A stretch of DNA of 64,000 nt from Minisyncoccota bacterium (GTDB lineage Bacteria; Patescibacteriota; Minisyncoccia; Phycocordibacterales; JABAAK01), in contig OZ244939.1 of assembly GCA_965222235.1 (NCBI GenBank), positions 248,585 to 312,584 of the forward strand. Reading direction: 5' to 3'. Made by a program: the position numbers and the translations under genes. The stretch's first letter is position 1. The number at the start of each line of letters is the position of its first letter. The notes below the pieces were generated by a model. That model saw only the letters and a program-made list of their open reading frames with translations. It was not told the origin of the DNA and made no database searches. Positions 9,016 to 40,057 of this stretch are shown here, piece by piece.

Positions 9016-10008
9016 ATGAATATATACACCATCATCTCGCTCATATTTCTCATTGCCATGGTCGCGGTGTTCGCGCCGAACCTTCGGCAGGAACGGCAGT
9101 CCGGGCTGAAGGACACCGCACAAACTGATGAGCATTCAGACAGGCAGGCATTCGCCCGCTACAGTCTCAAAACCGACACCACAAAACGGAACATTGATCT
9201 GGATCTCGTTCTCTCCGGAGGTCCGGGCAAAGACGGAATACCCGCTATTACCAATCCTACATTCATTCCCATCGCCGAGACGGACATTCAGGACGATGCC
9301 CGCGGTATTCTGGTGAACCTGCACGGCACCCGCCGCTTCTATCCGTACAATATTCTGGTCTGGCATGAAATCGTAAATGACCGCATCGGGGAGACCTCGT
9401 TCGCCGTCACATTCTGCCCGCTCTGCGACTCGGGCATCGTGTTCAACCGGCAGGTCGGCGGGAAGGTTCTGCAGTTCGGCGTCAGCGGACTGTTGTATGA
9501 ATCCAACCTGCTGATGTATGATTCGCTGACCGAATCACTCTGGTCGCAGACGCGGCGGGAGGCGGTTGCGGGTGCCTACACCGACACAACACTGAACATT
9601 CTGCCGTTACAGGTGCTTACCCTGCGTGAGGTTCGGGACAAGTATCCTGACACCGCCGTGATGAGCACCGACACAGGTCACCGGCGGGATTACGACCGGA
9701 TGCCGTATGACGGCTACGGAGGCATAGAGGAGACGCTGTTTCCGTTCTCCGGATCGGACAGCCGGTTTTTAGCAAAGGAGCCGCTCTATGTCATCCCGTT
9801 CAGAGGGCATTCAGTCGCTTTCCCGTTCAGAGACTTTTCGCCGGGCACACAAACCTTTACCGTTAAGGGGGAGGAGATTGTCATTTCCCGCGACGGCGAT
9901 GAAATCACTGCCATGAGCGGCGAAAAGACGCTCCCCGGCTATTTTGAATTTTGGTTCTCGTGGACAACACACCATCAGGATGACGGTATTGTGCTTGAAG
10001 TCACATAG
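9016..10008 (+). CDS. DUF3179-family protein with N-terminal membrane anchor
   Basis: SGLLYESNLLMYDSLTESLWSQ motif characteristic of DUF3179, with an N-terminal hydrophobic helix. Confidence 0.6.
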   Translation: MNIYTIISLIFLIAMVAVFAPNLRQERQSGLKDTAQTDEHSDRQAFARYSLKTDTTKRNIDLDLVLSGGPGKDGIPAITNPTFIPIAETDIQDDARGILVNLHGTRRFYPYNILVWHEIVNDRIGETSFAVTFCPLCDSGIVFNRQVGGKVLQFGVSGLLYESNLLMYDSLTESLWSQTRREAVAGAYTDTTLNILPLQVLTLREVRDKYPDTAVMSTDTGHRRDYDRMPYDGYGGIEETLFPFSGSDSRFLAKEPLYVIPFRGHSVAFPFRDFSPGTQTFTVKGEEIVISRDGDEITAMSGEKTLPGYFEFWFSWTTHHQDDGIVLEVT

Positions 10009-10208
10009 CGATGTTATTCACATGGACATTCCCCACCCGCTCCGCCTGTGCTACAGTACGGACATATGGAAATAGATGATGAGACAAAGAAACATATTCG
10101 GCATATATCGTTCTGGGTGCGGCTTTGGTCAATTATGAGTATTGTATGCCTCGTATCTGTTCCCTTTCTGGTAATATACCTCAACATCACCGCCAGTGTT
10201 TCATCCTC

Positions 10209-10754
10209 ATGAAAAACATTGTTGTTCTATATATACTCGGTGCCGTCATGGTGGCTGTGATAGGGTATGTATATATAACCGGCAATGAACACGATCCCGG
10301 TATCCGCACACTTCCTGTGTATCCCGCTGATATTTCCGCAGATGACCCCCGAGCGGCAGAACAGGCTGCACCGCCCGTTCTCAATGCTGAATCACCGGAT
10401 GCGGAGGCAATCCCACAGCTCCCGGCCGGTATGTATGTTGCATACAGCGGGGACGCCGTGCGGGAATATATATCGGCGAACCCAAGCGGGCGGGCGGTAC
10501 TCTTTTTCCATGCCGGATGGTGTCCCACCTGCCGATCCCTGCACAAAGCACTCACTGCCGCCGCGGATACTATACCCCCGGATATCGCCATATTCAAAGT
10601 AAACTATGACACGGAAAAGGAACTAAAACGTATATACCGGATAACCAGGCAGCACACCTTGGTTCTGCTGGACAGCAATCTGCAACCCGTGGACACCTGG
10701 TACGGTTCCCAAAATCTTGATGATGTAATCGCCCGTATTCACCGCGCACAGTAA
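10209..10754 (+). CDS. Membrane-anchored thioredoxin-like protein (CxxC motif WCPTC)
   Basis: FFHAGWCPTCRSLHKAL active-site motif and an N-terminal TM helix. Start at the internal ATG at 10209. Confidence 0.7.
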   Translation: MKNIVVLYILGAVMVAVIGYVYITGNEHDPGIRTLPVYPADISADDPRAAEQAAPPVLNAESPDAEAIPQLPAGMYVAYSGDAVREYISANPSGRAVLFFHAGWCPTCRSLHKALTAAADTIPPDIAIFKVNYDTEKELKRIYRITRQHTLVLLDSNLQPVDTWYGSQNLDDVIARIHRAQ

Positions 10755-10756
10755 CT

Positions 10757-11473
10757 ATGGAACCTTCTTTTCTCATCGCGGCATTTATTGCCGGCTTTCT
10801 TACCGCACTGGCGCCGTGCCAGCTGCCGTTTCTGCCGGTTATCATCGGCGGGTCCGTCGGCGGCGCGCGCCGAAATTCGTACATCATCATCGGATCCCTC
10901 CTTTCCTCAATCGTTATCTTCACCTTCATTATTGAAGGACTCGCCTCATTGTTCTATGTCCCGAACGAGGTGTGGGCATATATATCCGGTTCGCTGGTGC
11001 TGTTTGTCGGCATATCGTTTCTGTTTCCGTCGGTGTGGACGCGCATGCCGTTCATCTCCCGTTTCCTACACACATCCAATACCGCTATCGGCGCGCGCGC
11101 GGCGCGGCGCGGCCATGTCAACGACATGGTCATCGGCGCGGCACTGGGTCCCGCATTCTCGTCCTGTTCACCGACATACCTGCTCATCCTGCCGATACTG
11201 CTGTCATCAGCATTTCTCGAAGGGCTGCTGTACCTCTTCGCCTTTCTCGCCGGACTCGGCGCGGTGCTTCTTTTTGTCGCCCTGCTCGGACAGATGGCGG
11301 TCAGGCGGCTCAATATCATGGCGGACACAAGAGGCTGGTTCAAGCGCATTGTCGGCATTCTCATTGTTCTTGTCGGCATTTCCATACTGACGGGGTATAA
11401 CCGTGTTATTGAAGAACGCCTGCTGGATATTGAGTTTCTCAGCACCTCGCACGTTGAAACGCACATCAGATAA
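10757..11473 (+). CDS. ccdA: Cytochrome c biogenesis protein CcdA / DsbD-type thiol-disulfide transporter
   Basis: Polytopic, with LAPCQLPFLPV and a second Cys motif SCSPTYLL. Sits immediately downstream of the thioredoxin gene. Confidence 0.7.
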   Translation: MEPSFLIAAFIAGFLTALAPCQLPFLPVIIGGSVGGARRNSYIIIGSLLSSIVIFTFIIEGLASLFYVPNEVWAYISGSLVLFVGISFLFPSVWTRMPFISRFLHTSNTAIGARAARRGHVNDMVIGAALGPAFSSCSPTYLLILPILLSSAFLEGLLYLFAFLAGLGAVLLFVALLGQMAVRRLNIMADTRGWFKRIVGILIVLVGISILTGYNRVIEERLLDIEFLSTSHVETHIR

Positions 11474-22938: not shown

Positions 22939-23002
22939 ATACCGGTAGTATATAGCATGTGCTTATTAAAAAAAAGATGTGTGGATAAAGTCACTGCCTT
23001 AA

Positions 23003-23185
23003 GTGCACCGCAAGCGGGAGAATATCACCTCTCTATGTAAACAATATACTGATATATCGCTATTTCTACCGAAAAACGCCTACGCTGCCGACAATGCCGT
23101 GATGATCGCTCTAACCGCCTATATCCATCGCAATCGCACAATAGACCCCACCGCCCTTCCCAACCTCTCATTCCCTGAGGCATAG
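23003..23185 (+). pseudogene. Possible gene relic resembling the C-terminus of TsaD/Kae1 (…NAYAADNAVMIA…)
   Basis: Short ORF in an AT-rich intergenic stretch. The motif resembles the CTDNAAMIA C-terminal region of TsaD. Weak. Confidence 0.2.
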
Positions 23186-23247
23186 TAGTAACACAGGATA
23201 CCACACGCTATCCATTTTAGTTATATGTTTTATCAACGCAACAATAT

Positions 23248-23287
23248 AAAAGAAAAAAGAGGCAAAATTGTTTTTAATTTTGCCTCT
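23248..23287 (-). terminator. Rho-independent terminator downstream of the 23322..23945 gene (12-bp perfect stem AGAGGCAAAATT/AATTTTGCCTCT)
   Basis: Perfect inverted repeat followed by TTTTTTCTTTT on the minus strand. Confidence 0.6.
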
Positions 23288-23321
23288 CTGTTGAACTTTA
23301 TGGAATCCACATCAAAAGACT

Positions 23322-23945: not shown

Positions 23946-24203
23946 GCGAAAGTCTCCTTGTGTTGGTTTGCTTGACTTCTACATACAGGTTATCACAGGT
24001 TGCTAATTTTGTCTTGATCGCAAAATCTATATGACTTTGTCATTGAGTGATGACGAATGTGTACCACTTGTGCCCTCATGTGCTGATGAGTGCATAGCGT
24101 TGGAGTTGAGGTGTTGATAAGGTTCATATGCACCTAGTTTTATCACACATATTTTTATTTTAAGTTGGGTGTGTATAACTAAAAATCCATATCGGAATCG
24201 GAT

Positions 24204-24878
24204 CTACGGAATAATGCTCTCAACTTTGTGCACATATTCCATACACTTATGCCCTCCGTATTGAGTGCAAAACGGAATTAATGCGCTGTTATCTGTTCCG
24301 TCATACGGTATAAAATTATGTGGCATTGGAAAAAACTTTTTATCAAAAATGAAGACATTGGAAACTTCAATTGGCTTCAAGTAAGATATGTGCCCTGTTT
24401 TGATAATACGATACCTGTTTTCTTCTCCAGAGAGACGTATAACAACGATCTCTTCATGTATCCCGGAACCAAGAGTTATCCATGATTTTATGACATCACG
24501 AGGATCATCGGAGTGTGGCCTGGAGGATGTTACATACCCCAACAGGTCAATAAACAAAATACCATCCTCTCGGTATACATCGACGTCCAAATAGGAGGGG
24601 GGATTAGTAAAGTCATGTGTATATTCAGCGTTAAACACCACGATATTTCCTTGATATATAGGTCTGGTAGTGGTGCTATACGCCCCCAGCAGAGCTCTCG
24701 GCACATGCAATAGTTCCGGCGGTTGGGTGGGCTTATCGGCGGGTTTATTTTCAGGCAGTAATGTAATGAATACCGCCAATGCAACAAAGGGGGGAAATAA
24801 GAATCCAACCCGCACAACCCAGAAGCAGTTTTTTAGTAAAACGCATATACATGAAGTGCGCCATGGCACACGCCTCAA
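24204..24878 (-). CDS. Hypothetical secreted/membrane-anchored protein
   Basis: N-terminal hydrophobic segment followed by a Pro/Lys-rich linker. No family recognised. Confidence 0.4.
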   Translation of the reverse strand: MRRVPWRTSCICVLLKNCFWVVRVGFLFPPFVALAVFITLLPENKPADKPTQPPELLHVPRALLGAYSTTTRPIYQGNIVVFNAEYTHDFTNPPSYLDVDVYREDGILFIDLLGYVTSSRPHSDDPRDVIKSWITLGSGIHEEIVVIRLSGEENRYRIIKTGHISYLKPIEVSNVFIFDKKFFPMPHNFIPYDGTDNSALIPFCTQYGGHKCMEYVHKVESIIP

Positions 24879-25012
24879 GACTCGTCCCCGCCACTGTTAT
24901 TTCCAAACACCGTCAATGGTATCAAGCGACCGAATTCGACAGCGGAGGCAGGTACACATAAACAACTTTCAACCGTATGATATAGCAAATGTGTACCATC
25001 TTTACACTCCAG

Positions 25013-25096
25013 TGCCCAGGAGAGGACTTGAACCTCCACGGGATTACTCCCATACGCTCCTGAAGCGTACGCGTCTACCAATTCCGCCACCTGGGC
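25013..25096 (-). tRNA. tRNA-Leu (anticodon CAG), type II long variable arm
   Basis: Reverse complement GCCCAGGTGGCGGAATTGGTAGACGCGTACGCTTCAGGAGCGTATGGGAGTAATCCCGTGGAGGTTCAAGTCCTCTCCTGGGCA. Confidence 0.85.
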
Positions 25097-25230
25097 AATA
25101 CACCTCCAGTATGACACAAACATGGGTGCGGTGCATACATTTCCTGTCGGCGCACGGTAGAAACAGCATACAAAAACAGGACCGCCTATACGGTAAAAAC
25201 GGAGGAATATATGGTACAGTATGGTTACAC

Positions 25231-26139
25231 ATGGCGGTATACCAACTGAATCATGCGCAACATGTATCCGTATGGCTGTCGCTGTACGGACAGATAGAGC
25301 GGTTACGGATATTTCTTCATTTATGGAGAGTGGAATTAAAACTGCGGTCAGCGAATGTTGCACACCTTCCCGGACACCTGCAACGGAAACGGGCATTAAA
25401 TATCAGACGCCTGCGCACATACAGAAAAGAGGGATTGTTTCCTAAAAATCTTGATTTCCGCGGTGCCTTTATTCCCTACTTCAAAGATGCAACCGGCACA
25501 CCGTGCGCAGTCGCCTATCTCATGGAACAGTCCGGACAGCGGGATATAGTTGCGGATGTCGCAGTAAAAAACAACCATGTATATGTAAATGACATCAAGG
25601 ACGGACCGGTGCTTATATGGATTAAACAGTCCGGTCTGACACAACAGGAGGCGGCTCGCATACAGCCGTCCTATAGCGGTTGGGTGGGTGGGTTTGAATC
25701 GTCATATCAAACTCCTCATCTGGTTGATCTTTTCTACCCTGCGGCGGTTAACATAACGGTCATTTCAGGGCTGACGATTGCTCTGGCATTTCTGTTGTCC
25801 CGTTCATATCTTGCTTCATTGTGCGCCGGTATCGGCAAAAAAAGATTTTATACCGTCATGATTACGACGCTCGTTATGATTAATGTCGTATCTCTTCTCA
25901 CACATTTTGTCATCTATGATGGCTACGGCACTCGCAATCCTGATATTTCTTGGGCAATACTACTGGTTATCGCCTTCCCTCTTTTTATAATAACTGTCAT
26001 TGTCGGACTGATAAAACTGTTTCTGTATTTTTCGAATAAAAAGCGCTTCATATCTTCACTCATCATCTACCCGTTAACCGGAATCGTGCTCGCAATACTG
26101 CTGATATCCCTGCCTATAATGCTGCTGCTTCTCTGGTAA
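25231..26139 (+). CDS. Hypothetical membrane protein (soluble N-domain plus C-terminal TM helices)
   Basis: The track ORF 24670..26139 crosses tRNA-Leu, so the upstream part is spurious. Start set at the first ATG after the tRNA (25231); the true start is uncertain. Confidence 0.4.
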   Translation: MAVYQLNHAQHVSVWLSLYGQIERLRIFLHLWRVELKLRSANVAHLPGHLQRKRALNIRRLRTYRKEGLFPKNLDFRGAFIPYFKDATGTPCAVAYLMEQSGQRDIVADVAVKNNHVYVNDIKDGPVLIWIKQSGLTQQEAARIQPSYSGWVGGFESSYQTPHLVDLFYPAAVNITVISGLTIALAFLLSRSYLASLCAGIGKKRFYTVMITTLVMINVVSLLTHFVIYDGYGTRNPDISWAILLVIAFPLFIITVIVGLIKLFLYFSNKKRFISSLIIYPLTGIVLAILLISLPIMLLLLW

Positions 26140-26265
26140 CAGTGCTATCGGTACACCGAATCAGCGCATACCGACTGCTATCCCCACGTCATCTGTGCTT
26201 TGATTGGAAAAAATATTAGAACACTAAAGCGGTGCAATGATGAAGCCTGATATACTGTACTGGGT

Positions 26266-27990
26266 ATGAAATTTACTCGCAATCTTAAAGACATGGGAAG
26301 AAATGATACTGCAATCGCGGGCGGAAAAGGATTCTCTCTCGGTAGAATGATTCAAGCCGGCATACCGGTGCCGGATGGTTTCGTGATTCTTTCAACCGTC
26401 TTTGAGCATATTTCAGAAACATCAGGATTAAAATCTGAAATTAAATCAATACTTTATTCTGTAAACAGTAATGATAGTGACACAATCAAATATGCTTCGG
26501 AAAAAATTAGAAAACTTGTATTCAAATCAGAAATTCCCGAAAACATTTCTCATGAAATAATGAGCAATTTTGACCTTCTTCATTCCCAATATGTTGCTGT
26601 ACGATCATCAACCCCCACAGAAGATTCAGCGGATGCGACCTGGGCCGGCATACTTGAGAGCCATCTTGAGACAACAAGAGAAGATTTGTTGGAAAATATA
26701 AAGAAATGCTGGGCATCATTATTCACACATCATGCTATTCAATATGGTTTTGAAAAAGGGTTGGATGAGAAAAATATATCTATTGCGATTGTTATACAAA
26801 AAATGGTGAAAAGTGAAAAGTCCGGAGTTGCTTTTTCTGTTCATCCGGTGACACAAAACAGGGAGCATATGATAATTGAAGCCGGTTCGGGTCTTGGCGA
26901 GGCTGTAGTATCCGGCAAGACTATACCGGATTCCTACATTGTCAGGAGAAAGTCTCTGACAATTGTCAGTAAAAGCATTCATGGGAAGCGGAGTATTCTC
27001 TCTGAAAATGAAACATTGAAACTCTCGGAGATGGTTCTCACTGTTGAAAATCTTTTCGGTTTTCCTGTTGATGTTGAATGGGCATATGAAAAAAGAAAGT
27101 TCTTTATTCTACAGAGCCGCCCCATCACAACACTAACGGAAATAGAGAACCGGATGGTTTTAGTCGGCAAACGAAGAACAGACAAAATGCATGCTGAATT
27201 ACGTATCAAGGGGTGGACAGAGGGATTAAAAAAAGAAATCGGCACCGGTTATAGAAAGATAGTTATAAACTCGGGCGGTGAACATTTTGTAGATTCTGAA
27301 AGTAGGGATGAAATAAATGAATTACTTTCTCAAAAAAGTTTTCAGGATTTTAAGTTTTATTCAGATAAAATGCGTGTATTTAGAGGTGAGAATTTTTCTG
27401 ATTTATTCACATACTTTCTTATAGCCAGACACACTGCTGACGGAATCTATAAAACATGTTCCTCCGAACAACAAAAAGCTATTGAAGAGTGGCGCAACGA
27501 TGAAAATCTCTTTCAGCCACTGGATGAATATATAAAAACAAATCCTGTTAATAAAAGTAAGGAACATTGGAAGTGGGAATTTTATAACGGAAAAATGGTT
27601 CTTACTGAACAAAATGAAAAAAACGTTGATCAAGGCGACAAAGGTGGTTTACTGTCTAAAAAAACACATAAAGAAATAAAAGGTGAGCCGGTGTACGGGG
27701 GTGTGGTTCACGGAACGGTAAAAATTGTTGAAAACTTGGATGACCTTGCAAAAATTACTGAAGGAGATATAGCAGTCGCCCAAATGATGAGCCCTGACTG
27801 TCTTCCCATTATTAAAAAATCCCGGGCAATTATCACGGATGAAGGCGGAATATTAAGTCACACCGCAATTATGGCAAGGGAAATGGAAAAGCCCTGTATT
27901 GTTGGGACCGGAACAGCAACTACAATATTGAAAGATGGGGATCAGATTAAAATTGATGCGGCATCCGGCATGATTCACATCTTGAGCTAA
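26266..27990 (+). CDS. PEP-utilizing phosphotransferase: PPDK-N-type ATP-grasp, unique ~190-aa middle region, C-terminal swivelling phospho-His domain (rifampicin-phosphotransferase-like architecture)
   Basis: N-terminus ...AGGKGFSLGRM...VAVRSSTPTEDSADATWAGILES...FFILQSRPITT. C-terminus GGILSHTAIMAREMEKPCIVG with the catalytic His motif. Confidence 0.7.
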   Translation: MKFTRNLKDMGRNDTAIAGGKGFSLGRMIQAGIPVPDGFVILSTVFEHISETSGLKSEIKSILYSVNSNDSDTIKYASEKIRKLVFKSEIPENISHEIMSNFDLLHSQYVAVRSSTPTEDSADATWAGILESHLETTREDLLENIKKCWASLFTHHAIQYGFEKGLDEKNISIAIVIQKMVKSEKSGVAFSVHPVTQNREHMIIEAGSGLGEAVVSGKTIPDSYIVRRKSLTIVSKSIHGKRSILSENETLKLSEMVLTVENLFGFPVDVEWAYEKRKFFILQSRPITTLTEIENRMVLVGKRRTDKMHAELRIKGWTEGLKKEIGTGYRKIVINSGGEHFVDSESRDEINELLSQKSFQDFKFYSDKMRVFRGENFSDLFTYFLIARHTADGIYKTCSSEQQKAIEEWRNDENLFQPLDEYIKTNPVNKSKEHWKWEFYNGKMVLTEQNEKNVDQGDKGGLLSKKTHKEIKGEPVYGGVVHGTVKIVENLDDLAKITEGDIAVAQMMSPDCLPIIKKSRAIITDEGGILSHTAIMAREMEKPCIVGTGTATTILKDGDQIKIDAASGMIHILS

Positions 27991-28188
27991 CCTCTTCGTC
28001 GCCGCTGCTAAAAATGTATGTCTTCTCTGGTGCCCAGGAAAGGATAGCGTTGGAACTGAAAAAAGTTTTTAGACCAAATATCGCCCGCTCCGAGCGCACA
28101 GTAAACCCACGAATCAACATCGTACGCTTCAAACACCAACCAAAATTACCCGGCCAAACCACCACAAACAACCACAACAAACAAAAAA

Positions 28189-29928
28189 ATGATACAATAC
28201 CAATCAATGGGTATGCTTCGTTTATGTATTTTGGCTGTTTGTCTTGCGGCAGGGCTACATTTTGGGTATGAGGCATGGCAAACATATACGCAACATGGAG
28301 TGCCGCTTAAAACGGTTGCAACCTATGCTGTACCAAGTATTACTCATAACGGTATTGAATACACCATTACTGACGCAGGGTTGCAGGGCATCAGTGACAA
28401 ACACCGGAACAAACTGCTGCAACTTGCTTACTTTGCAACAGTTGCGCGAATTGATCCGCTCCTTGCCTTACCGGGTGTAGACCTAGAAGTATTTCGTGCG
28501 GTTATTGATGAGATAGAAGCGTCACAGGAACGGGTCACGTCCGTGTATAGTCCCGAAGACCGGAAGATGATTCGAATGTCACTGTATCCGATTTCATTCC
28601 TCAAATCGCTGCATGATCTGGAGCAACTACGTCGACAGGTTGTGGAAACCCCATCGTTTAGTGATACAGAGACATATCAACGACAGTTCGTTGAAACCTA
28701 CGAACTATATATAGAAAATATAGAAACTTTGCAACATGCGATTGAAGTGCTTGTTCCTGATGCAATCAAGCGAAGCACAATCCGCTTTCATACGGGAAAC
28801 TCAAGTATGGGATTTATTGCAAACACACTGGCCAAGTATCAGGACGGTATCACTCAGGTATATGAAACACAACTTGATCGGTTTCGCTGTTATAAGGGGG
28901 TAGCTAAATACTGTTTTGAAATTACCCGACCGCAGTTACCATCAATCGTACAGTCAACCGCATCGGACGAGTATAAGAATACAGTCATGCAACATCAAAC
29001 TTTTATTGAGGCGTTTCGGCAAGATCCGTATCGCGGATACAGTCACCCGTATGCCAATGTAGAGCTGTCTACGAGCAGGTGTGGTGACCCAGATAAGCCG
29101 GGTTACTACTACCTGTGGTGGCGTGAAGACGATTCAGGATTAGCTATTTTTCGCCCTGATTTGCTACACGAGCTATTTTTCTATGATTTTTGGCACGGAA
29201 AACAGGCTGATTGGCAGTATGCGCAAGTATACCGAACGCTTCGTGGTCCGCAGTATACCTACCAGCCAATTGCAAGCCATTATGTCTGTCCGGATCTTGG
29301 GTTAGATATGGCCACCATATTGTCAATGCTCTATGTAGATGAGAATAAACTACACATAGTACCCGTTGGGTCTGAACCACAGCCCGAGATTGACCCACTC
29401 ATTGATGCAGCTAATTTCGCATACGATGAATTGACTGACTCACAGCAACTTATCCAAGTAGCGATTGAGGTATATATTGATGCATTGCATGCGCTGCTAA
29501 CCTCTACATCAGAGTCAGAATTGTATGAATACATCGGTACTACCGCTACTCAAACGGCGCATGACCTGGTCACCGTATACTATGCCCGAACTGCCTATGT
29601 TCCGGATGTATTGATGAGTGTAGTCAGTGATAACGAAGCGGTTGCTAACTATGCGTTGCATGGCACATCAACCGGATTAGACGAGTTGCTATTACTACGA
29701 ACCGTACCAATGGTGTTGTATGGCGGTTTCACCCCGACAATTCAACCACAACCTCACACCTTTGTCCGTGAATTTATCTCTGAACCGCCAGATATTCTCG
29801 TTACCTGGCCAGATTTAGAAATTGTAGATACAGCAACATTTGTCCGCGAGCTACAGAAGGCTGAGCGGGTGAAGATTGATATGTCTGCCTCTGTTGGCAC
29901 TGTGTATCCAACCAACTCGTCTAACTAA
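28189..29928 (+). CDS. Hypothetical large protein (579 aa) with N-terminal signal anchor
   Basis: N-terminal hydrophobic helix, rest unrecognised. Part of the island. Confidence 0.45.
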   Translation: MIQYQSMGMLRLCILAVCLAAGLHFGYEAWQTYTQHGVPLKTVATYAVPSITHNGIEYTITDAGLQGISDKHRNKLLQLAYFATVARIDPLLALPGVDLEVFRAVIDEIEASQERVTSVYSPEDRKMIRMSLYPISFLKSLHDLEQLRRQVVETPSFSDTETYQRQFVETYELYIENIETLQHAIEVLVPDAIKRSTIRFHTGNSSMGFIANTLAKYQDGITQVYETQLDRFRCYKGVAKYCFEITRPQLPSIVQSTASDEYKNTVMQHQTFIEAFRQDPYRGYSHPYANVELSTSRCGDPDKPGYYYLWWREDDSGLAIFRPDLLHELFFYDFWHGKQADWQYAQVYRTLRGPQYTYQPIASHYVCPDLGLDMATILSMLYVDENKLHIVPVGSEPQPEIDPLIDAANFAYDELTDSQQLIQVAIEVYIDALHALLTSTSESELYEYIGTTATQTAHDLVTVYYARTAYVPDVLMSVVSDNEAVANYALHGTSTGLDELLLLRTVPMVLYGGFTPTIQPQPHTFVREFISEPPDILVTWPDLEIVDTATFVRELQKAERVKIDMSASVGTVYPTNSSN

Positions 29929-31172
29929 AACTCCAGTTTGATGCTTTTGTTCTTATCCTTTACTTCGTAGGTCGTGTCAAAGTAGAGTCTCGGCGGATTA
30001 AATAAACCAGCTTCGATGGCCTGCTTTAGAGTTACTCTGTGTGAAATCTGGACAGCATCAAGCGCGCTAAGTATACGTTCTCGTAATGATGATGTATCCT
30101 TAATACCGTCACAAAGCACCAGTGTGATATCTAGTAGTGCAACAATACGGTCACCAGTACGTATCTCACGCACGATGACATGTATTACCGGCTTGAGTTC
30201 GGTACTGAATACTGCCAGAGCAGCTTGTAGGTATTCAATTCTAAGTTCCGTCCCTCGTACGCGAACAAAATCTACTCCACTACGACCGGTGATTTTGAAC
30301 CTCGGTTTATCAAGACCACAAACACACGGCTCCTTGAGCAGAATCCCACTATCGCCAGTTTGATATCTAATCAATGGGAGGGGGTATAGGGGGGGGTTGA
30401 GGATGGTTATCGCAATCTCATTTGTAGAGTCAATATCGACCACAAAATCCTCATCGTTGATGTGCATGATGGTATAATCTTCACCACAGGCTGGCGTGTG
30501 AAAACCAAACGCTCCGGAGGATTCAATACTCCCAAAGTGGTTAAAAATTTGAGCCATTGGATACTGCTGTTTGAGTAGTTGTAGGGTGGTTGGAGTGAGG
30601 GCTTCACCACCGAGATCCAGTACCTTAAATTGCTCAAGCAGCTTCATGTTTTTGAGGTGTTGAGGCAACATTGTGGCAATTGATGGCGAAGCAGCTAATG
30701 TATCAAATGTTTCAGTCTGTAACAGTTCTTCGCAATACGATAATTGATGTGGGTCAATTGACATTACTTCAATCCCCGATGAGCGTATGGATGATGCCCA
30801 GAGAGGGGTTGTTGTGTAATTCCAGATAAGGAACATTCTTTTGGTGCCCCACTGTTGTAGTGTGCGATAGAATGAAATTGCATATTCATGCAGCCATACA
30901 AAAAAAGGTTCTCCCGAGGTTGATCCTGAGGATGAATTTAGCAGCGAAAGCTTTTGTGGTGGTACGAATATGTGGATACCTTGGGTGCGTGCAGCGACAA
31001 AAACAGCTTTGGTGACTGGTGGGAGTTGTTGTAGATCGGTTATGTCGGCAATGGTTGGACAGACCGTGATACCGGCTAATCGCCAATGTGTTTGGTATAA
31101 ATCGCTGTAGTCATTATTCCATGCAGCATTGATGGCGGCTTGGAGCTTGAACATTGTTTCATTCTGATACAT
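29925..31172 (-). CDS. PaaK/CapK-family adenylate-forming enzyme (phenylacetate-CoA ligase / F390 synthetase-like)
   Basis: P-loop SSGSTSGEPF, downstream YQTGD motif, length ~415 aa. The start is either ATG 31172 or 31154. Confidence 0.65.
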   Translation of the reverse strand: MYQNETMFKLQAAINAAWNNDYSDLYQTHWRLAGITVCPTIADITDLQQLPPVTKAVFVAARTQGIHIFVPPQKLSLLNSSSGSTSGEPFFVWLHEYAISFYRTLQQWGTKRMFLIWNYTTTPLWASSIRSSGIEVMSIDPHQLSYCEELLQTETFDTLAASPSIATMLPQHLKNMKLLEQFKVLDLGGEALTPTTLQLLKQQYPMAQIFNHFGSIESSGAFGFHTPACGEDYTIMHINDEDFVVDIDSTNEIAITILNPPLYPLPLIRYQTGDSGILLKEPCVCGLDKPRFKITGRSGVDFVRVRGTELRIEYLQAALAVFSTELKPVIHVIVREIRTGDRIVALLDITLVLCDGIKDTSSLRERILSALDAVQISHRVTLKQAIEAGLFNPPRLYFDTTYEVKDKNKSIKLEF

Positions 31173-31641
31173 AGTGTGAAAGCGGGTTAGATAGGCGTAT
31201 GACCTTTGACTCCCTGAGGTCAAACGACCTTCCGAGCACGAACTCATCCTCATCACTATCTGACACTAGAATAAGTTGTAGAGGTGTAGTTACTTTGTGC
31301 CGGCTCTCAAGTGCTTTTAACAAGTAAGGAAGTACACTGATTTCAGACACTATGCATGTAGCACCGCTGTAGGTATACGCCTGAACTGTCCAGGGCAAAT
31401 CATACACTGATCCGCACACCAGCGGAATCCCAGTTAACATAGTGACTGAAAGAATTACAGGTTCTAGGTGTCTCTCGGGCGGCAGAAAACTAATAATTGC
31501 CTCCGGTCGGTTGGTATCTAAAAACAGTTTTAATTCTGGCCAAACCAAATCGTTCACCGAGACAATTTTAAGTGACCCGTCTGATTGTCTCACTGGTATC
31601 AGTTGCGGGACATCAGATTTTACCAACGAGTTACTGCCCAT
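31159..31641 (-). CDS. Hypothetical protein (160 aa) immediately upstream of the adenylating enzyme
   Basis: Its start codon lies inside the conserved 3' UTR shared by the two small peptide genes. Confidence 0.45.
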   Translation of the reverse strand: MGSNSLVKSDVPQLIPVRQSDGSLKIVSVNDLVWPELKLFLDTNRPEAIISFLPPERHLEPVILSVTMLTGIPLVCGSVYDLPWTVQAYTYSGATCIVSEISVLPYLLKALESRHKVTTPLQLILVSDSDEDEFVLGRSFDLRESKVIRLSNPLSHYVSE

Positions 31642-31685
31642 AAAATCAAACTACAAACATTTTTAGATTATCCATTACTTATATA

Positions 31686-31940
31686 CTAAAGGAATCCGCC
31701 GCATCCGGCAAAGAGCACTTCATCTGAATCGTCAGCACTCTCCAAGTACTCAAGGTAATCCATTGTACCGAGTACGTCACACTGTAGACTTGATTGAGCG
31801 ACGGTATCATCGGTGTTAGATGAAGAATATCCCAACAATGGAGCTGTTTGCTCAGCACTTATCCACTGCAAACCAAAAAACCCTAATACCACTACAACAA
31901 AAAATACAATGCACTCCACGATTGTCTTTGTTTTAGTCAT
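31686..31940 (-). CDS. Small secreted/membrane-anchored peptide P1 (84 aa) with conserved acidic Cys-containing C-terminal core
   Basis: N-terminal TM/signal, then a Ser/Thr-rich stretch, then VAQSSLQCDVLGTMDYLEYLESADDSDEVLFAGCGGFL. Paralog of 34354..34614. Confidence 0.55.
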   Translation of the reverse strand: MTKTKTIVECIVFFVVVVLGFFGLQWISAEQTAPLLGYSSSNTDDTVAQSSLQCDVLGTMDYLEYLESADDSDEVLFAGCGGFL

Positions 31941-32289
31941 ATATATAGTATATCTATACAGTTCTGATTCTGGGAACGAAACTGGTCCAGACTGTGGATA
32001 ACCCGATTTTTGCTTGATTTCATAATCGCTTTCGAATCGTGTGGTCCGGTTCCACAGTTAAGTCATGAGATCTAAAATTATACTATCCTTCTTTGATATT
32101 ATAGACAAAAGATGCTTGATTAAGATTGATGGTTTCGTGTTTTGAATAATTCTTGAGCCAAAACATCCTGGAGGTAAGGCAACTATAAGTACGCGACTAC
32201 TGCTTGTCTGTTACTGAACATATCTTGCACCTTTCACTTACCATTTCTTTTTCAATTTCTTTCCGCCGCCATTTCGCGCTCCGTGCGAT

Positions 32290-32480
32290 TCAAAAGGCAA
32301 AAGAAATGGGTTGTGTGATCGGCACGGCAGAGCGAAGCGCATGGAGGAGCGGCACGGAACGAAGTGGAGTGTCACTCTGAAGCACTCCGACTGTTCCCGC
32401 GTGAAAGAGCGGTGCCGAACGGGGCGAGTTGCCTGCTCGGAGTAAGTGGAGTGACCACGAGCCTCGTTTGAAATGTTCTC
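32290..32480. repeat. GC-rich degenerate direct repeats (units approx. CGGCACGG..GCGAAG..GGAG; GAAGTGGAGTG twice) in the gap between membrane gene H and peptide P1
   Basis: Seen directly. It generates the spurious repetitive ORF 32290..32490 (SAPLFHA/SVPLLHA). Confidence 0.5.
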
Positions 32481-32506
32481 CGAATTTCAATGCACTGTCC
32501 GGCGAA

Positions 32507-34153
32507 TCACAAGATTCCTTGCCGGCGGATTGTATCGTAGGGAACAGTCTCTAAATTTTCCCGGTCAATTAAAATCCACGGATTGTGTCTTAATGGGTGA
32601 TACTCTACAGCACAAACATTGACCTCGTCCAACACCCGCCGATAAGGTTCCAAGTTAATGGCAATGTCCATGGTAAGCAATGCTGACTTGAGATTATTGT
32701 GCAAACACCGCTGCTTCAATACATACCATTGATAGTAAGGTCTGCAATACCCCATGCGTTCTTCTTCCCACCATTGAACGGATTCAGTGTTATCTTGATC
32801 ACGAATAGAGGTGGTAATGTAACACCAAGGCAACGCCTGAAACATATGCAGACCAAAACGGACTCCTTCACGGGTGAGTCGTGAATCGCCCGGTATGACA
32901 AGAGAGACACTCTGCCCCAGGATTAATAAGGCAGTTAACCCGATGATGATAATTTGATGCAGGCGTTTTGCGGGCCAATGTATAGGACATTCGTGTCCCA
33001 GGAACACAATAAGTAGTATCACCACAGCTACCGCCGGAAAGAAATATTGAATTAATACGACCGAATAAATATGAAATATGAACAATGCGCCGATCGCAAT
33101 ATATCGTAACGGTTTTTTACTCAACAATAACCAAATGATGCCCCCATGTATGGCTATGACTGTTAAGGCAAGTGGTGTGTGCAATTGGTCACCGACGATC
33201 GGGAGTCCCAGGTCAAGTGATTTAAATATTTCCCCCCCCCCCAACCACGAATCGTTCATTTTAGAGCTTAGTGATAAGATATAGGTCATCATAAGCACCC
33301 ATCCCACGGTCATAATTTTATTTGGCAAAAACAGAAGAATGAAATTGATTATGCAAACATAAAACATCACATGGCCATAGTAAAAATCATTATGGGTTAA
33401 CAATCCCACCAGGACTATGTGCCACACTGCAGGTACCAACAGCAGCATGTGTCCCAAAACCAGACGGCGCGAAAGCACGGCAACCAGGGCTCCGGAGAGA
33501 AATAGCATCAACACAATACTCCAGATGTGATATCCGTACTCTGAAAAAATATAATATTCATAACAATTTTGAAACCAGATGGGACAGATGTACTCCCCAA
33601 CCTGCAAAGGAGTGACGATTGATAGGGCTGGGTTTTTCAGGGCAAAAACTAAAAATGCAATTGAAGCGATTAATAGGTACGGTGCCAATTGACTGTTTTT
33701 AAACTCATGTACACTAAACAGTCGTTCGTATCCGGTAAAATATTTACGGAATGGCGACACATTCAACATGACACGTTGACCGATAGTTTTGACAAGTAGC
33801 CACAAACCGACACCCAGTACAAACCAATGAAGGTATGTATGTTCAAGGCTGGTATGTATAGTGGGATCTATGTAGCCCAGAAAAGCGGTGATAATTGACG
33901 GCAGCAAGAGTAACCATGCTGTTGTTGTATAACCACGATACATCTGTATGCCGCTGAGGAGAAACAATAATAACAACCCCGCGTACAAATACATAAAGGA
34001 ATAGCCCACCGGCTGTATAGTCAAATCGGACCCTAATATTGCTTTGCTGACATAGGGGGACTCAAGGATAACGAATGCTGTGATCAATGTCGTCCAATAT
34101 ATGACTGTGCCGGTCTGTTTGGTCAGGATGTGCTTTATGATATACATCGGCAT
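32507..34153 (-). CDS. Hypothetical polytopic membrane protein (548 aa, >10 TM)
   Basis: Highly hydrophobic ORF directly downstream of peptide P2. No family recognised. Confidence 0.5.
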   Translation of the reverse strand: MPMYIIKHILTKQTGTVIYWTTLITAFVILESPYVSKAILGSDLTIQPVGYSFMYLYAGLLLLFLLSGIQMYRGYTTTAWLLLLPSIITAFLGYIDPTIHTSLEHTYLHWFVLGVGLWLLVKTIGQRVMLNVSPFRKYFTGYERLFSVHEFKNSQLAPYLLIASIAFLVFALKNPALSIVTPLQVGEYICPIWFQNCYEYYIFSEYGYHIWSIVLMLFLSGALVAVLSRRLVLGHMLLLVPAVWHIVLVGLLTHNDFYYGHVMFYVCIINFILLFLPNKIMTVGWVLMMTYILSLSSKMNDSWLGGGEIFKSLDLGLPIVGDQLHTPLALTVIAIHGGIIWLLLSKKPLRYIAIGALFIFHIYSVVLIQYFFPAVAVVILLIVFLGHECPIHWPAKRLHQIIIIGLTALLILGQSVSLVIPGDSRLTREGVRFGLHMFQALPWCYITTSIRDQDNTESVQWWEEERMGYCRPYYQWYVLKQRCLHNNLKSALLTMDIAINLEPYRRVLDEVNVCAVEYHPLRHNPWILIDRENLETVPYDTIRRQGIL

Positions 34154-34353
34154 ATCTGTAAAAAGTATTCATGATGGATGACATGTGTACTCCGTGTGTT
34201 TCCGAGGCAGGGTTCGTAATGAGTAATATACAATAGATTCGGTGGATACTGGATAGAATCCGAACATTTCGACAAAAAGTATCGTGACCACACACCAATA
34301 AAATCAAACTACAAACATTTTTAGATTATCCATTGTTTATATACTATCATATA

Positions 34354-34614
34354 TTAAAGGAACCTCCCGCATTCGGCAAAGAGCGCTTCATCTGAATCGT
34401 CAGCACTCCCCAAGTACTCAAGGTAGTCCGTTGTGCCGAGTACGTCACACTGTAGACTTGATTGAGCGACGGTATGTGTATCAGTAGAATCGGTGGATGA
34501 GTTAGAGAATTTGCCAGATCCTGAAAAGGCGGATGTCAACACCAGGAAATATATTGAGCTGATGAAAAATCTTGTAAAAATGAAACGCAAATGATATATA
34601 ACCATGACTACCAA
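34354..34614 (-). CDS. Small secreted/membrane-anchored peptide P2 (paralog of P1)
   Basis: C-terminus VAQSSLQCDVLGTTDYLEYLGSADDSDEALFAECGRFL. The track start is a TTG; the likely ATG start is at 34605. The 3' half of the gene and 45 bp downstream are near-identical to the P1 locus. Confidence 0.55.
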   Translation of the reverse strand: MVVMVIYHLRFIFTRFFISSIYFLVLTSAFSGSGKFSNSSTDSTDTHTVAQSSLQCDVLGTTDYLEYLGSADDSDEALFAECGRFL

Positions 34615-34663
34615 AAAAGAGTGCTACCATTTCTGATAGCACTCCTCCGCTGATGCCGGCCCG

Positions 34664-35962: not shown

Positions 35963-36600
35963 CGTTTCCTCCTTCTAAGGAAAAGAACTGGTAATCAATC
36001 CGCCCAATCTCCCACTGAAACGGGAGCAGTTGGATCTGCAATAAATAATACCAGAATTCCGTAAAAACACAACGAATTGATTATCAATAAAACTATAATG
36101 AAAGACAACTGATGGGAAAGCTCACTATTGTGCTTCAGCAACATTCAGATAATATTCATCATCTGTCGTTTGAAACAGACAGGTGCCTTTGCTTTGACTT
36201 GCTTTCCGTTGTCTTTCTCTTGAAGTACACCTTGGCTTTTGTGTTGCCGCGGGGCACCTTTCTCCTTTTTCAAACTGTTTTTTTGAGTTTTAATGCTATT
36301 CTCTATTGGAAACTTGGAAAGAAGAATGTATGGTATATTGCGAAACATAAAAAAACTCATGGAGGAACATTCCGTGAGATGAGACATCAAACGCGAAACA
36401 GAAAGGAGTCCGAGGGATACCATACCGTTTTCGGATTCTCCCATATGACATTAACGGAACGGAAGCCTGTGGCAGTAGTTGGTTCCGGCTCAACGGTGAA
36501 ACTGGGATCAAGGAAAACAGCACGAACGAACGGGGATACCGTGATACCGATACCCTCCGGTGCGGTGAGATACGCTTCGCCGGAGATTTATACTGTCCAG

Positions 36601-36684
36601 TGCCCAGGAGAGGACTTGAACCTCCACAGGATTACTCCTATACGCCCCTCAAGCGTACGCGTCTACCAATTCCGCCACCTGGGC
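36601..36684 (-). tRNA. tRNA-Leu (anticodon GAG)
   Basis: Near-identical to tRNA-Leu(CAG) at 25013..25096, differing by C34G, A38G and a compensatory pair in the variable arm. Confidence 0.85.
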
Positions 36685-37509: not shown

Positions 37510-38331
37510 ATGAACCCGACGCCAATCGCTCTCATATATGATTTTGACGGCACTCTCGCCACCGGCAACATGCAGGAGCACGGTTTCATCCCCTCTCTCG
37601 GCATTAATCAGGATGCATTCTGGCGTGAAGTCGAAGACACCGCCAAAGAAGGTGATATTGATCCCATACTCGTGTACATGCACCTCATGATTCGCGAAAG
37701 CGCGAAACGAAATATACCGATTACAAGACAGACGCTTCGGGGTCATGGAGAGAATCTGCCCCTTTTCCCCGGTGTCACCGAATGGTTTGATGCACTGAAC
37801 GCCTACCGGCCCGATGCAGATGTGCGGCACTATATCATCTCCTCCGGACTGCGCGAAATGATACACGGGCTGCCGATTGCCCGCAACTTCACCCGTATCT
37901 TCGCCTGCGACTTTATCTATAAAAATGACATTGCCGTCTCTCCCGGACTGGGTATAAACTACACAAACAAGACGCAGTTCCTTTTTCGTATCAACAAAGA
38001 CACGAATGATGTTTCCGACACCTCCATAGTCAATGCCGTGGTTGTCCCGGAAGACCGACCTCTTCCCTTTTCACATATGATATATATCGGCGACGGTCCG
38101 ACGGATATTCCGTGCTTCACGGTAATCCGCAAAAATGGCGGATACGGTATTGCGGTGCATGAAGCTGAACAGCAGCGCGCGAAAGAAACCTGTGAGCAGA
38201 TGCTTGATGACGGCCGCATACATCATATAGCGGAGGCTGACTATCGCACGGATAGGCGGCTGATGCGCGTGGTAAAGGGGATGATAGATATAATTTGCGC
38301 GCAGCAACGGATTTATGATGAGCGAGGATAA
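37510..38331 (+). CDS. HAD-superfamily hydrolase/phosphatase
   Basis: Motif I DFDGTL and motif IV IGDGPTD. Confidence 0.7.
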   Translation: MNPTPIALIYDFDGTLATGNMQEHGFIPSLGINQDAFWREVEDTAKEGDIDPILVYMHLMIRESAKRNIPITRQTLRGHGENLPLFPGVTEWFDALNAYRPDADVRHYIISSGLREMIHGLPIARNFTRIFACDFIYKNDIAVSPGLGINYTNKTQFLFRINKDTNDVSDTSIVNAVVVPEDRPLPFSHMIYIGDGPTDIPCFTVIRKNGGYGIAVHEAEQQRAKETCEQMLDDGRIHHIAEADYRTDRRLMRVVKGMIDIICAQQRIYDERG

Positions 38332-38357
38332 CCGTGCTATTTCCTGGACACTACCCC

Positions 38358-38888
38358 TTATCCACTCAAGTTCGGCAGTCCTATTTTTCGTAAAGGGAGA
38401 TGATTAAAATAGCAAGAACACCCTCGTATTGAGAGTATGTAATTCAGGACATCTTTATATTCTTCCTTTTTAAACCAATCATTGAGTATATAAATATATT
38501 CAACTTTCACCCTTAACTTTGAAAGCAGTTTTCTGTATTGTTTTACTTTAAAATCACATGTTTGCAATTTTTCATCTGTAGATCCGGATGTTCTTTGAAA
38601 CTTTATTTCTAAAATGAAAAAAGTGTTATTTTTTATCACAAAAATTGCATCATCAGGTAGTAATTTTTTGGTAATATATTTTCTATAATCTATACCCCTA
38701 CCTTTCAAATAGTCATATAGCCCGTGTTTTCTGAAAGATGTCGCAACATACTTTTCTTTGTAATGTATATCAATGTCATTCTTAATGGTGTATCCTTTTT
38801 GTTTTGAAAGGAAAGAAACAAGATCCACCTCTCCTTCAAAATACAAACCTGTCTTTGTGCTCTCGCCTCCTACACCACCGCGCCTCAT
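38358..38888 (-). CDS. Putative type II restriction endonuclease
   Basis: AT-rich small ORF whose ATG overlaps the stop of the upstream DNA methyltransferase (ATGA). No family recognised; the call rests on context. Confidence 0.45.
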   Translation of the reverse strand: MRRGGVGGESTKTGLYFEGEVDLVSFLSKQKGYTIKNDIDIHYKEKYVATSFRKHGLYDYLKGRGIDYRKYITKKLLPDDAIFVIKNNTFFILEIKFQRTSGSTDEKLQTCDFKVKQYRKLLSKLRVKVEYIYILNDWFKKEEYKDVLNYILSIRGCSCYFNHLPLRKIGLPNLSG

Positions 38889-39709
38889 AGTGCCAACTGT
38901 AAGGTCCCCACACAATCATTAAACCTACTTTTGCTTAATTCTAAATATTTTCGCTCTTTGTCAAAGCCGATAAATTTTCTCTTGTGGTTAAAAGCAGCAA
39001 TTCCTGTTGTGGAACTTCCTGCAAATGGATCTAACACAACATCTCCTTCGTTTGTACTCGCTAAAATAATTCTTTCCAACAAGTTAATCGGTTTTTGTGT
39101 CGGGTGTTTTCCGTGTTGTTTTTCATTGTTCCTCGGGGTGTTGATAGACCACACCGATCGCATCTGTTTTTTGGGTGTTTTCATCGTATCCCTGCTCCAA
39201 TCTCCTTCTTTCATAAGGGCATAATTAAACACTTGTTTACTTTTTTTATCTTTCTTTGCCCAAATTAATGTTTCGTGACTCGCAGTAAACATTCTGCAGG
39301 ATAAATTAGGCGAAGCATTCGGTTTGTACCATGCGACATCGTTGAGTATATGGTATCCTTCAAGCTGCAATGCAAAACCGCACTGATAAATAGAGTGATA
39401 AGTGCCGCTAATCCAGATGGTCCCGTTCGGTTTTAACACCCTCTTACAGGCACGGATCCAGTTTCTTTGAAATTCAAAATCTTTTTCTGTCCCCTTACTC
39501 TTATCCCACGATCCTTTGTTTACGCTAACTCTTTTACCTGCATGAACAGAGAAACCGTCATTAGACAAATTATACGGCGGATCTGCAAAAATAAGATCAA
39601 CGGAGTGCTCCGGTGTTTTGTCCAATAAATTTATGCAATCACCCTCATACAGAGTAAAATGAGGTGAATTTTCTTTATGAAAATATGGTTTTATGCCTGA
39701 AAGCCTCAT
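38885..39709 (-). CDS. DNA methyltransferase, beta-class N6-adenine/N4-cytosine (DPPY motif precedes the FxGxG motif)
   Basis: LIFADPPYN (motif IV) followed by C-terminal VLDPFAGSSTTGIAA (motif I). Start at the internal ATG 39709. Confidence 0.75.
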   Translation of the reverse strand: MRLSGIKPYFHKENSPHFTLYEGDCINLLDKTPEHSVDLIFADPPYNLSNDGFSVHAGKRVSVNKGSWDKSKGTEKDFEFQRNWIRACKRVLKPNGTIWISGTYHSIYQCGFALQLEGYHILNDVAWYKPNASPNLSCRMFTASHETLIWAKKDKKSKQVFNYALMKEGDWSRDTMKTPKKQMRSVWSINTPRNNEKQHGKHPTQKPINLLERIILASTNEGDVVLDPFAGSSTTGIAAFNHKRKFIGFDKERKYLELSKSRFNDCVGTLQLAL

Positions 39710-39734
39710 ATATACAGTATATGGCAAATTTTGG

Positions 39735-39760
39735 ATATATAGATTTGAAGGATGTGACAA
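39735..39760 (-). promoter_or_regulatory. Candidate sigma70-like promoter for the methyltransferase-endonuclease operon (TTGTCA ... TATATA)
   Basis: Hexamers read on the minus strand ~25 nt upstream of ATG 39709. The spacer looks slightly short (~14 nt). Confidence 0.3.
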
Positions 39761-39855
39761 TTTGTGCACAATTTCTACGCCAAATCGTCTAAAACTCACT
39801 ATTCTTCTTTGCTTTCTTCTGTAAGATGTTTTATGCCCCCCTCTATCCACTCAAG

Positions 39856-39929
39856 TAGCGGGGGTTGGATTTGAACCAACGACCTCCAGGTTATGAGCCT
39901 GGCGAGCTACCTGACTGCTCTACCCCGCT
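39856..39929 (-). tRNA. tRNA with CAT anticodon (elongator Met or lysidine-type Ile2)
   Basis: Reverse complement AGCGGGGTAGAGCAGTCAGGTAGCTCGCCAGGCTCATAACCTGGAGGTCGTTGGTTCAAATCCAACCCCCGCT. No GGG/CCC initiator signature in the anticodon stem. Confidence 0.8.
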
Positions 39930-40057
39930 TCACTGCCGCAGGGTATATATACGCCTCATACATTTCTCTCAATATATGTATGTCTGTACAGCGTGTTTCA
40001 TGATTACCTTACGACGTACCGCCAGTATACAAAAATTGAACAATAAATGCAAATACA

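Follow-up and report, generated by a model that had tools for sequence, protein, structure and literature searches.

A rare microprotein–ligase cassette in a Minisyncoccota genome and a probable partial duplicate of its peptide gene

Do two small peptide genes that share a C-terminus and a downstream element make up two peptide systems, each with its own partner gene, or one system and a copy of part of it? The question is raised by a stretch of 64,000 nucleotides (nt) from a Minisyncoccota bacterium (assembly GCA_965222235.1, contig OZ244939.1, positions 248,585 to 312,584 of the forward strand), hereafter called the window, which lies on a 641 kb contig and carries two short minus-strand open reading frames (ORFs), P1 and P2. 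A first-pass annotation of this DNA had proposed two paralogous secreted peptides, each paired with a different large partner. We find that P1, a 160-aa protein and a 415-aa PaaK-type ligase form a conserved cassette, of which a convergently encoded, membrane-anchored protein of 579 aa is probably the fourth member, and that P2 is best read, from the sequence, as a recent partial duplicate of P1 fused to unrelated DNA. The genes of the cassette are as follows (positions are those of the window):

31686..31940, minus strand: P1, an 84-aa microprotein ORF
31159..31641, minus strand: 160-aa protein, the founding member of a rare family of ~150-aa proteins
29925..31172, minus strand: 415-aa PaaK-family (ANL) adenylating enzyme, with a 14-nt overlap with the 160-aa ORF
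28189..29928, plus strand: 579-aa convergent gene, encoding an N-terminal transmembrane (TM) helix and a large Cys-containing domain

Read along the minus strand, the order is a purC/purE fusion gene, a strong terminator, P2, 200 nt, the gene for a 548-aa membrane protein, a 566-nt spacer, P1, the 160-aa ORF and the 415-aa ligase gene, upon which the 579-aa gene converges from the plus strand. The order of the cassette was seen in five lineages, with partner identity ranging from 73% down to about 25%. In L001, a syntenic relative, the P1 ortholog is 61% identical, the 159-aa protein 73%, the 415-aa ligase 69% and the product of the convergent 575-aa gene 69–70%. The remaining loci are laid out as follows:

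L007–L009: 82 aa, 145 aa, 419 aa, convergent gene
P0015 contig: 77 aa, 153 aa, 418 aa, convergent gene
L010: 89 aa, 152 aa, 413 aa, then a TM-anchored gene of 444+ aa

Compared with the window, the 160-aa homolog and the ligase are 36% and 48% identical in L007–L009, and 26% and 25% identical in L010. The same gene order was found for every member of the 160-aa family with a readable context, and both the order and the tight spacing or overlap of the genes are kept in genomes of only about 0.6 Mb; the hosts are small-genome bacteria, probably of the candidate phyla radiation (CPR)/Patescibacteria. The proposed linkage of P1 to the 160-aa ORF and the PaaK-type enzyme is therefore confirmed by its recurrence in five independent lineages, in each of which a P1-type C-terminal core accompanies a 160-aa-type protein and a ligase. 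The earlier description of an undescribed peptide system is fair for the P1 cassette, whose partners include no known enzyme of the peptides that are made on ribosomes and modified after translation (RiPPs) and no curated family match at threshold. No PADLOC defence-system match was obtained for any cassette protein. We regard the P1 cassette as a genuine, rare and undescribed microprotein–ligase cassette.

The 579-aa protein has no Pfam or NCBIfam family, and a 70% identical ortholog stands at the same position in L001. The C-terminus encoded by the convergent gene of L007 matches it at 48% over 42 aa, the P0015 contig carries a convergent gene of at least 400 aa, and the fourth gene of L010 displays weak collinear similarity to it (E 0.059). 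The fourth protein of the cassette is usually a membrane-anchored protein of 400–580 aa.

P1 consists of a basic start (MTKTKT), a hydrophobic stretch of about 21 residues, an ISA/EQ junction, Cys54, an acidic stretch and the C-terminus EVLFAGCGGFL. Against the L001 ortholog, the ratio of nonsynonymous to synonymous substitution rates (dN/dS) over the last 24 codons is 0.11, from which it follows that P1 is translated and kept by purifying selection. Searching 5.8 billion proteins with the P1 sequence by itself brought up nothing but P1, because short peptides fail the E-value in so large a database; a four-sequence profile recovered further family peptides, including one from a Candidatus Sungbacteria metagenome-assembled genome. 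Eight peptides are now in the family, each with a basic, signal-peptide-like N-terminus, a hydrophobic stretch and a net-acidic remainder. In five of these peptides the motif (V/I)SA is followed by a polar residue; a sixth has ATA. One Cys lies 29–31 residues from the end in all eight, and the tail, EV(L/F)xxxCGG plus two hydrophobic residues, is followed directly by the stop codon, which fixes the distance from the final Cys (the fifth residue from the C-terminus, 8/8) to the free carboxylate. A core lacking conservation in related genomes, which the first-pass annotation had named as grounds for abandoning its proposal, is at odds with these eight sequences.

The P1 family has no match to Pfam or NCBIfam, nor is its motif matched in the literature. 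When the alignments of the peptide and of the 160-aa protein were used as patterns against GTDB genomes and JGI metagenomes, neither yielded any relatives. Two other identities for the peptides were considered and rejected. The C-terminal FAGC is not a lipobox, being some 50 residues from the signal peptide and reading SVTC in L010, and the peptides are not fragments of a larger gene, since no larger homolog was found in protein searches or at the related loci.

The ligase most likely starts at 31172, giving the 415-aa form that is present in the protein collection, from which a 443-aa form is absent. A profile of four cassette ligases searched against the PDB aligned with the PaaK enzyme BT_0428 (E 2.6e-21, over positions 6–380) and the amide ligase ClxA (2.6e-18). 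Motifs that are invariant or conserved in the four sequences comprise the SSGSTSGEP P-loop, E217, Y270/T272/G273/D274, G296/R297/D301 and K405/K407/K409. The scores fall below curated cutoffs (23.5 bits vs 29.9 for PF00501; 37 and 18 vs 700 and 646 for the NCBIfam PaaK models), and on its sequence the protein is a divergent PaaK-family ANL enzyme. Pfam and NCBIfam scans of P1 and its partners returned no RiPP enzyme and no ThiF match. The earlier statement that none of the partners is a recognisable RiPP enzyme holds to that extent. The suggested Pfam check of the 548-aa protein, the 160-aa protein and the enzyme likewise gave no family at threshold, with weak sub-cutoff matches for the enzyme. 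Of the features by which RiPP clusters are recognised, a short co-oriented gene adjoining a candidate modifying enzyme was found in five lineages, and a class-defining enzyme or RiPP recognition element (RRE) was not. The ligases of the window, L001, L007 and L010 also display an invariant CxC(G/N) after the TGD motif and a third invariant Cys (C229), which together may form a metal site; the CxCG part is common to the cassette ligases, BT_0428 and ClxA.

When 1.84 billion representatives were searched exhaustively with HMMER, 17 clusters proved to be true relatives of the 160-aa protein. Members are 145–180 aa long, except for the 74-aa fragment P0013, and share the motifs WPEL, FLPPE and GSVYDLPW. 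The family profile has no sequence-level relative in the PDB. Modelling from the 17-sequence alignment reached a predicted local distance difference test (pLDDT) score of 87.6, compared with 35 for single-sequence AlphaFold2, and the best Foldseek matches of the model are VinN and PaaK1. In hhalign the protein aligns to residues 103–202 of the ligase (probability 77%, E 2e-5), and it contains no ANL catalytic motifs. The modelled fold is ANL/Rossmann-like as opposed to a winged-helix RRE. We read the 160-aa protein as a stand-alone partner whose alpha/beta domain resembles a subdomain of the ANL N-domain. From the model, it would possibly supply the extra N-terminal subdomain that is present in canonical ANL enzymes and missing in the PaaK types.

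The status of P2 turns on three further features at the other end of the region:

34354..34614, minus strand: P2, a chimeric ORF of 86 aa from TTG (ATG at 34605)
34613..34644, minus strand: intrinsic terminator of the purC/purE fusion gene, a 10-bp GC-rich stem followed by T6 (-29.4 kcal/mol, z = -5.0)
32507..34153, minus strand: 548-aa polytopic membrane protein with a Cys-containing C-terminal domain

The ORF list, DNA alignment and repeat finder agree with the first-pass annotation that P1 and P2 have near-identical C-termini and a shared 3' element, that the ATG of the 160-aa ORF (31641) lies inside this element and that a polytopic ORF of 548 aa stands downstream of P2, at a distance of 200 nt. 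The likeness consists of a 127-nt block corresponding to the last 39 codons (31681–31807 vs 34349–34475, 92% identity) and a 52-nt block past the stop codon that reaches the start of the next gene (31637–31688 vs 34295–34346, 94% identity), with a 10-nt indel between them. It ends abruptly at both edges, with no alignment between the 5' halves. Only one repeat in the window is longer, so chance does not account for it.

P2 therefore combines a 92–94% copy of the P1 C-terminal codons and 3' untranslated region (UTR) (34295–34475) with about 46 unrelated first codons. It carries E67G, V75A, G79E and G82R; four of its five amino-acid changes fall at residues kept in seven or eight of the eight family members, and it alone in the family alters V75, G79 and the CGG position G82, all of which P1 keeps. 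At the triplet corresponding to the start of the 160-aa ORF the P2 copy has ATT. Its TTG start overlaps the last two T residues of the purC/purE terminator, a consensus scan found no promoter-like site ahead of it and, since its 5' half is open in two of the three frames, an open frame there is weak evidence. The source record does not call P2 as a gene. There is no second peptide in L001, where the membrane gene follows one for a SpeE-like membrane protein of 748 aa. L006, an independent assembly, has its break precisely within the P1/P2 repeat and confirms the side running from the membrane gene to P1. Between P1 and P2, dN/dS is 0.34, a value derived from only 9 substitutions.

This sequence evidence is best explained if P2 is a recent, partial copy of P1 that is joined to unrelated DNA immediately behind the purC/purE terminator. 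P2 probably arose when a rearrangement brought the membrane gene to its place upstream of P1, and is probably losing family-conserved residues. We take P2 to be a by-product and not a working gene because it is absent in L001, breaks conserved residues, starts in a terminator, has no promoter-like site and carries a UTR that is as close to that of P1 as its coding sequence is; that it is still expressed as a variant peptide is doubtful. The idea of two equivalent paralogs, each with its own partner, is therefore not upheld, and the joint copying of UTR and coding sequence corresponds to the recent local duplication that the first-pass annotation had itself set out as a counter-explanation.

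The 548-aa membrane protein adjoins the cassette but does not belong to its conserved set. It has six homologs among 5.8 billion proteins. Those at L002–L005 adjoin a polytopic protein of ~750 aa with a SpeE-like (spermidine-synthase-like) domain, accompanied in L003–L005 by an AT3 acyltransferase; none of these four loci has a peptide core. In both long contigs (the window and L001) it is found no more than 5 kb from the cassette, and it is not immediately upstream of it in L007 or on the P0015 contig. Neither Pfam nor the PDB gave a match, even with a profile, and a Pfam scan of six family members at E<=10 returned only a stray PAP2 at 0.024; assignments as a gamma-carboxylase/HTTM or MBOAT protein were rejected on these grounds. 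Nothing supports the earlier speculation that the protein acts on the Glu/Asp-rich core, given this absence of matches and its pairing elsewhere with SpeE-like and AT3 proteins, with which it looks like part of an uncharacterised envelope module. The L001 gene seems to be split by a frameshift (9658..10053 and 10001..11389).

What, then, might the cassette do? The best explanation of the whole, which we hold tentatively, joins the conserved cassette and the duplicate P2 to a thioester made by the ligase before Sec export. P1 would be synthesised carrying a signal peptide of the Sec type. Prior to export, the ligase, a cytoplasmic enzyme, and its ANL-subdomain-like 160-aa partner would recognise the tail EVLFAGCGG plus two hydrophobic residues. 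The ligase would use ATP to form an acyl-adenylate, to be captured by the invariant Cys as a thioester. In the version that we favour, the peptide's own C-terminal carboxylate would be activated, producing a five-residue thiolactone like that of the staphylococcal autoinducing peptides (AIPs), formed without AgrB. In AIP sequences the ring is C-x-x plus two hydrophobic residues. The peptide would then be exported and cleaved after the (V/I)SA motif to act outside the cell, with the 579-aa protein as a putative receptor, processing or attachment partner.

Separate steps of this scheme have precedents. Adenylation-driven thiolactone formation is established for the ThiF-like GrcB (PMC12250964), signal-peptide-bearing RiPP precursors are established for the DAG-RiPPs (PMC13056109), and the PaaK-type ligase ClxA acts as an amide/ester ligase without coenzyme A (CoA) (PMC12519233, PMC9400959). 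PaaK-family enzymes, ClxA among them, are the nearest solved relatives of the cassette ligase. The fuller claim is that CPR/Patescibacteria make a new class of ribosomal peptides bearing a thiolactone (or thioester), in which an ANL ligase and its partner adenylate a free C-terminus. We consider this distinctly unlikely as it stands; episymbiotic bacteria could use such a product as a signal or as a reactive adhesin peptide.

The comparison with known systems sets out both the likeness and its limits. With AgrD/AgrB the family shares, as a sequence pattern, a ribosomal exported peptide in which Cys is followed by exactly four residues, the last of them hydrophobic (8/8). In contrast, the peptides and neighbours scanned have no Pfam match to an AgrB-type endopeptidase or to AgrD, the mature peptide here would be ~50 aa, and a Sec signal peptide takes the place of an amphipathic leader. 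AIP precursors also carry a C-terminal tail, whereas all members of this family end at the fifth residue, so that ATP activation would be needed. The GRC-type ThiF RiPPs (GrcB, PMC12250964) share with the chemistry proposed here ATP-dependent adenylation of a peptide carboxylate and capture by a Cys thiol to give a thiolactone, but employ an E1/ThiF enzyme and an RRE in place of an ANL/PaaK enzyme and an ANL-subdomain-like protein, and the ring orientation differs. Alignment over both domains, the adenylation motifs and CxCG link the 415-aa enzyme to PaaK-family ANL ligases including ClxA (PMC9400959, PMC12519233), from which it differs in scoring below curated cutoffs and in always being paired with a ~150-aa ANL-subdomain-like protein and an upstream microprotein. 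DAG-RiPPs (PMC13056109) similarly use a general-secretion signal peptide instead of a leader and exporter, with a cytoplasmic enzyme acting first, as is proposed here; in our peptides, however, the signal peptide is not followed by a lipobox, and the enzyme is something other than an MNIO. Finally, DltX (PMC12148441) is a membrane microprotein whose conserved C-terminal motif holds an invariant nucleophile, and it is encoded with an ANL enzyme and a single-pass extracytoplasmic partner. It differs in using Tyr (FXYXXF) where the cassette peptides have Cys; moreover, no MBOAT, carrier or SGNH protein was detected here, and the peptides are longer, acidic and equipped with a probable signal-peptidase site, which argues against a stable membrane anchor.

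Several points weigh against the thioester scheme. A cytoplasmic enzyme working on a Sec substrate needs the modification to precede export. The literature searched contained no ANL enzyme that adenylates the C-terminus of a ribosomal peptide, and to our knowledge none is known. The tail, as the most conserved part of the peptide, would also fit a recognition or sorting motif, and the two conserved Cys could form a disulfide. Neither a protease nor a dedicated exporter was found in the cassette with Pfam and NCBIfam. Gene context was read for 5 of the about 17 clusters of the 160-aa family, P0032–P0034 not being among them. As for P2, its decay is not proven, a dN/dS of 0.34 from 9 substitutions does not show relaxed selection, and its novel N-terminus is hydrophobic and signal-peptide-like.

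The likeness to DltX suggests one other role, namely that P1 stays membrane-anchored through its hydrophobic stretch of ~21 residues with the CGG tail outside, and that the ligase activates a small acid or amino acid to be carried as a thioester on the Cys. The 579-aa protein would then pass the acyl group to a cell-envelope polymer, and a polytopic protein of the 548-aa type would possibly move it across the membrane. It is consistent with this that the nucleophile is invariant and close to a conserved extracellular C-terminus, that the microprotein shares an operon with an ANL enzyme and that a convergent gene encodes a single-pass extracytoplasmic protein, and the Dlt pathway follows the same logic with DltX, DltA, DltB and DltD (PMC12148441). 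The 548-aa protein, with its location within 5 kb of the cassette in the window and L001 and an AT3 acyltransferase as its own neighbour, fits too, but it also occurs without the cassette in L002–L005 and is not directly upstream in L007 or P0015. Pfam and NCBIfam reveal no MBOAT, carrier protein or SGNH signature in the 548-, 579-, 160- or 415-aa proteins, five of the eight peptides have (V/I)SA before a polar residue as at a typical cleavage site, and there is no route by which an acyl-AMP would reach an external Cys. We consider such a shuttle unlikely. We think it equally unlikely that P1 is an unmodified, disulfide-bonded acidic peptide, secreted or anchored for host attachment or signalling, and merely co-transcribed with a metabolic PaaK ligase and its accessory subunit. 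An extracytoplasmic disulfide loop would indeed be in keeping with the Sec-type signal peptide and with two conserved Cys ~25 residues apart, the ligase is similar to ordinary PaaK enzymes, and no RiPP-type enzyme, protease or exporter was found in Pfam or NCBIfam. However, gene order and tight spacing or overlap persist from 73% to ~25% partner identity in ~0.6 Mb genomes, the ~150-aa family is known solely in this arrangement where the context is readable, and the fixed five-residue distance from Cys to C-terminus is hard to explain by a disulfide alone.

Least probable of all, in our judgement, is the original model in which P1 and P2 are both functional precursors with partners of their own and the 548-aa protein modifies or exports the Glu/Asp-rich core. 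P2 does retain an open frame, a hydrophobic, signal-like N-terminus, both Cys and the acidic stretch; dN/dS between the copies is 0.34 and not 1; and the order of P2 and the membrane gene is real, with L006 confirming the side from that gene to P1. Set against this are the absence of P2 upstream of the membrane gene in L001 and of any peptide core in L002–L005, the breakage of V75, G79 and G82 in P2 alone, its start in a terminator T-tract with no promoter-like site found, the two open frames of three in its 5' half, and a membrane protein that matches no family, HTTM/gamma-carboxylase included.

Little is understood of how CPR bacteria interact with their hosts, and few dispensable genes are kept in their genomes. 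If thioester formation by the ligase is correct, the ANL/PaaK superfamily would join the enzymes that modify ribosomal peptides, a second and ATP-driven route to AIP-like C-terminal thioester rings would exist, and the cassette would be one of the first systems of peptide signalling or surface chemistry to be defined in ultra-small CPR bacteria. Regardless of mechanism, the analysis defines a microprotein family whose invariant tail is CGG plus two hydrophobic residues, a rare family of ANL-subdomain-like proteins of ~150 aa and the strict linkage between them. P2, in turn, serves as a caution that a "second paralog with its own partner" can be the by-product of a rearrangement.

Around P1, three non-coding segments were delineated:

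31941..32003, minus strand: conserved region upstream of P1, from a consensus scan and conservation with L001 3446–3503
31642..31685, minus strand: spacer between P1 and the 160-aa ORF (the "conserved 3' UTR"), ~65–70% conserved in L001
32004..32506, no strand: non-coding spacer that separates the membrane gene from P1 and has a GC-rich core at ~32290–32470

The upstream region contains a promoter-like TTCCCA-18-TATACT at 31976..31947, a pattern match alone, whose -10 element ends 6 nt before the ATG, and the P1 mRNA may on this basis be leaderless. A perfect TTATCCACA nonamer (the DnaA-box consensus) lies on the minus strand at 32001..31993, 53 nt upstream of the P1 start, with its ATCCACAG part kept in L001; it could be a coincidence or a regulatory site. 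Conservation of the 31642..31685 spacer in L001 is no higher than that of the flanking coding DNA. The 566-nt spacer has no Rfam match, no homolog in related loci and a fold z of about -0.4, and its GC-rich core (32290–32470) carries short GCGGCACGGAACG-like repeats. A functional RNA in the shared 3' UTR or the 566-nt spacer was rejected on the lack of an Rfam match or a significant fold and on the UTR being just ~65–70% conserved in L001.

From ~23 to 34.6 kb of the window the GC content is 0.40–0.47, compared with ~0.55 elsewhere. This low-GC island (~23000–34650) is one of several, the others lying at 38000–40000 and 44000–46000 (0.38–0.47 vs ~0.55). The GC content of the cassette region matches the genome-wide value of the relative L001 (0.40–0.48), which hints that the region was acquired from a lower-GC relative. 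Two direct IS30-like copies, at 20591–21737 and 42824–43971, each with a 360-aa transposase ORF and 99.9% identical over 1148 nt, bracket a 21-kb segment (21–43 kb) that holds the low-GC island and the peptide cassette; the pair resembles a composite transposon and could explain local rearrangements. Two tRNA-Leu genes, at 24998–25096 and 36586–36684 (anticodons CAG and GAG), one of them inside the island, are 92% identical over 99 nt, including 14 nt outside the tRNA. The island also encodes, at 26266–27990, a 574-aa protein like phosphoenolpyruvate synthase or rifampicin phosphotransferase, with ATP-grasp and phosphohistidine swivel regions and a length ~200–300 aa short of the matching models. 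Further along, a low-GC gene pair adjoins tRNA-Met at 38358–39850, in which the gene for a 321-aa protein with a DPPY motif overlaps a 185-aa ORF; DPPY is typical of N6/N4 DNA methyltransferases, and the pair may be a restriction-modification module.

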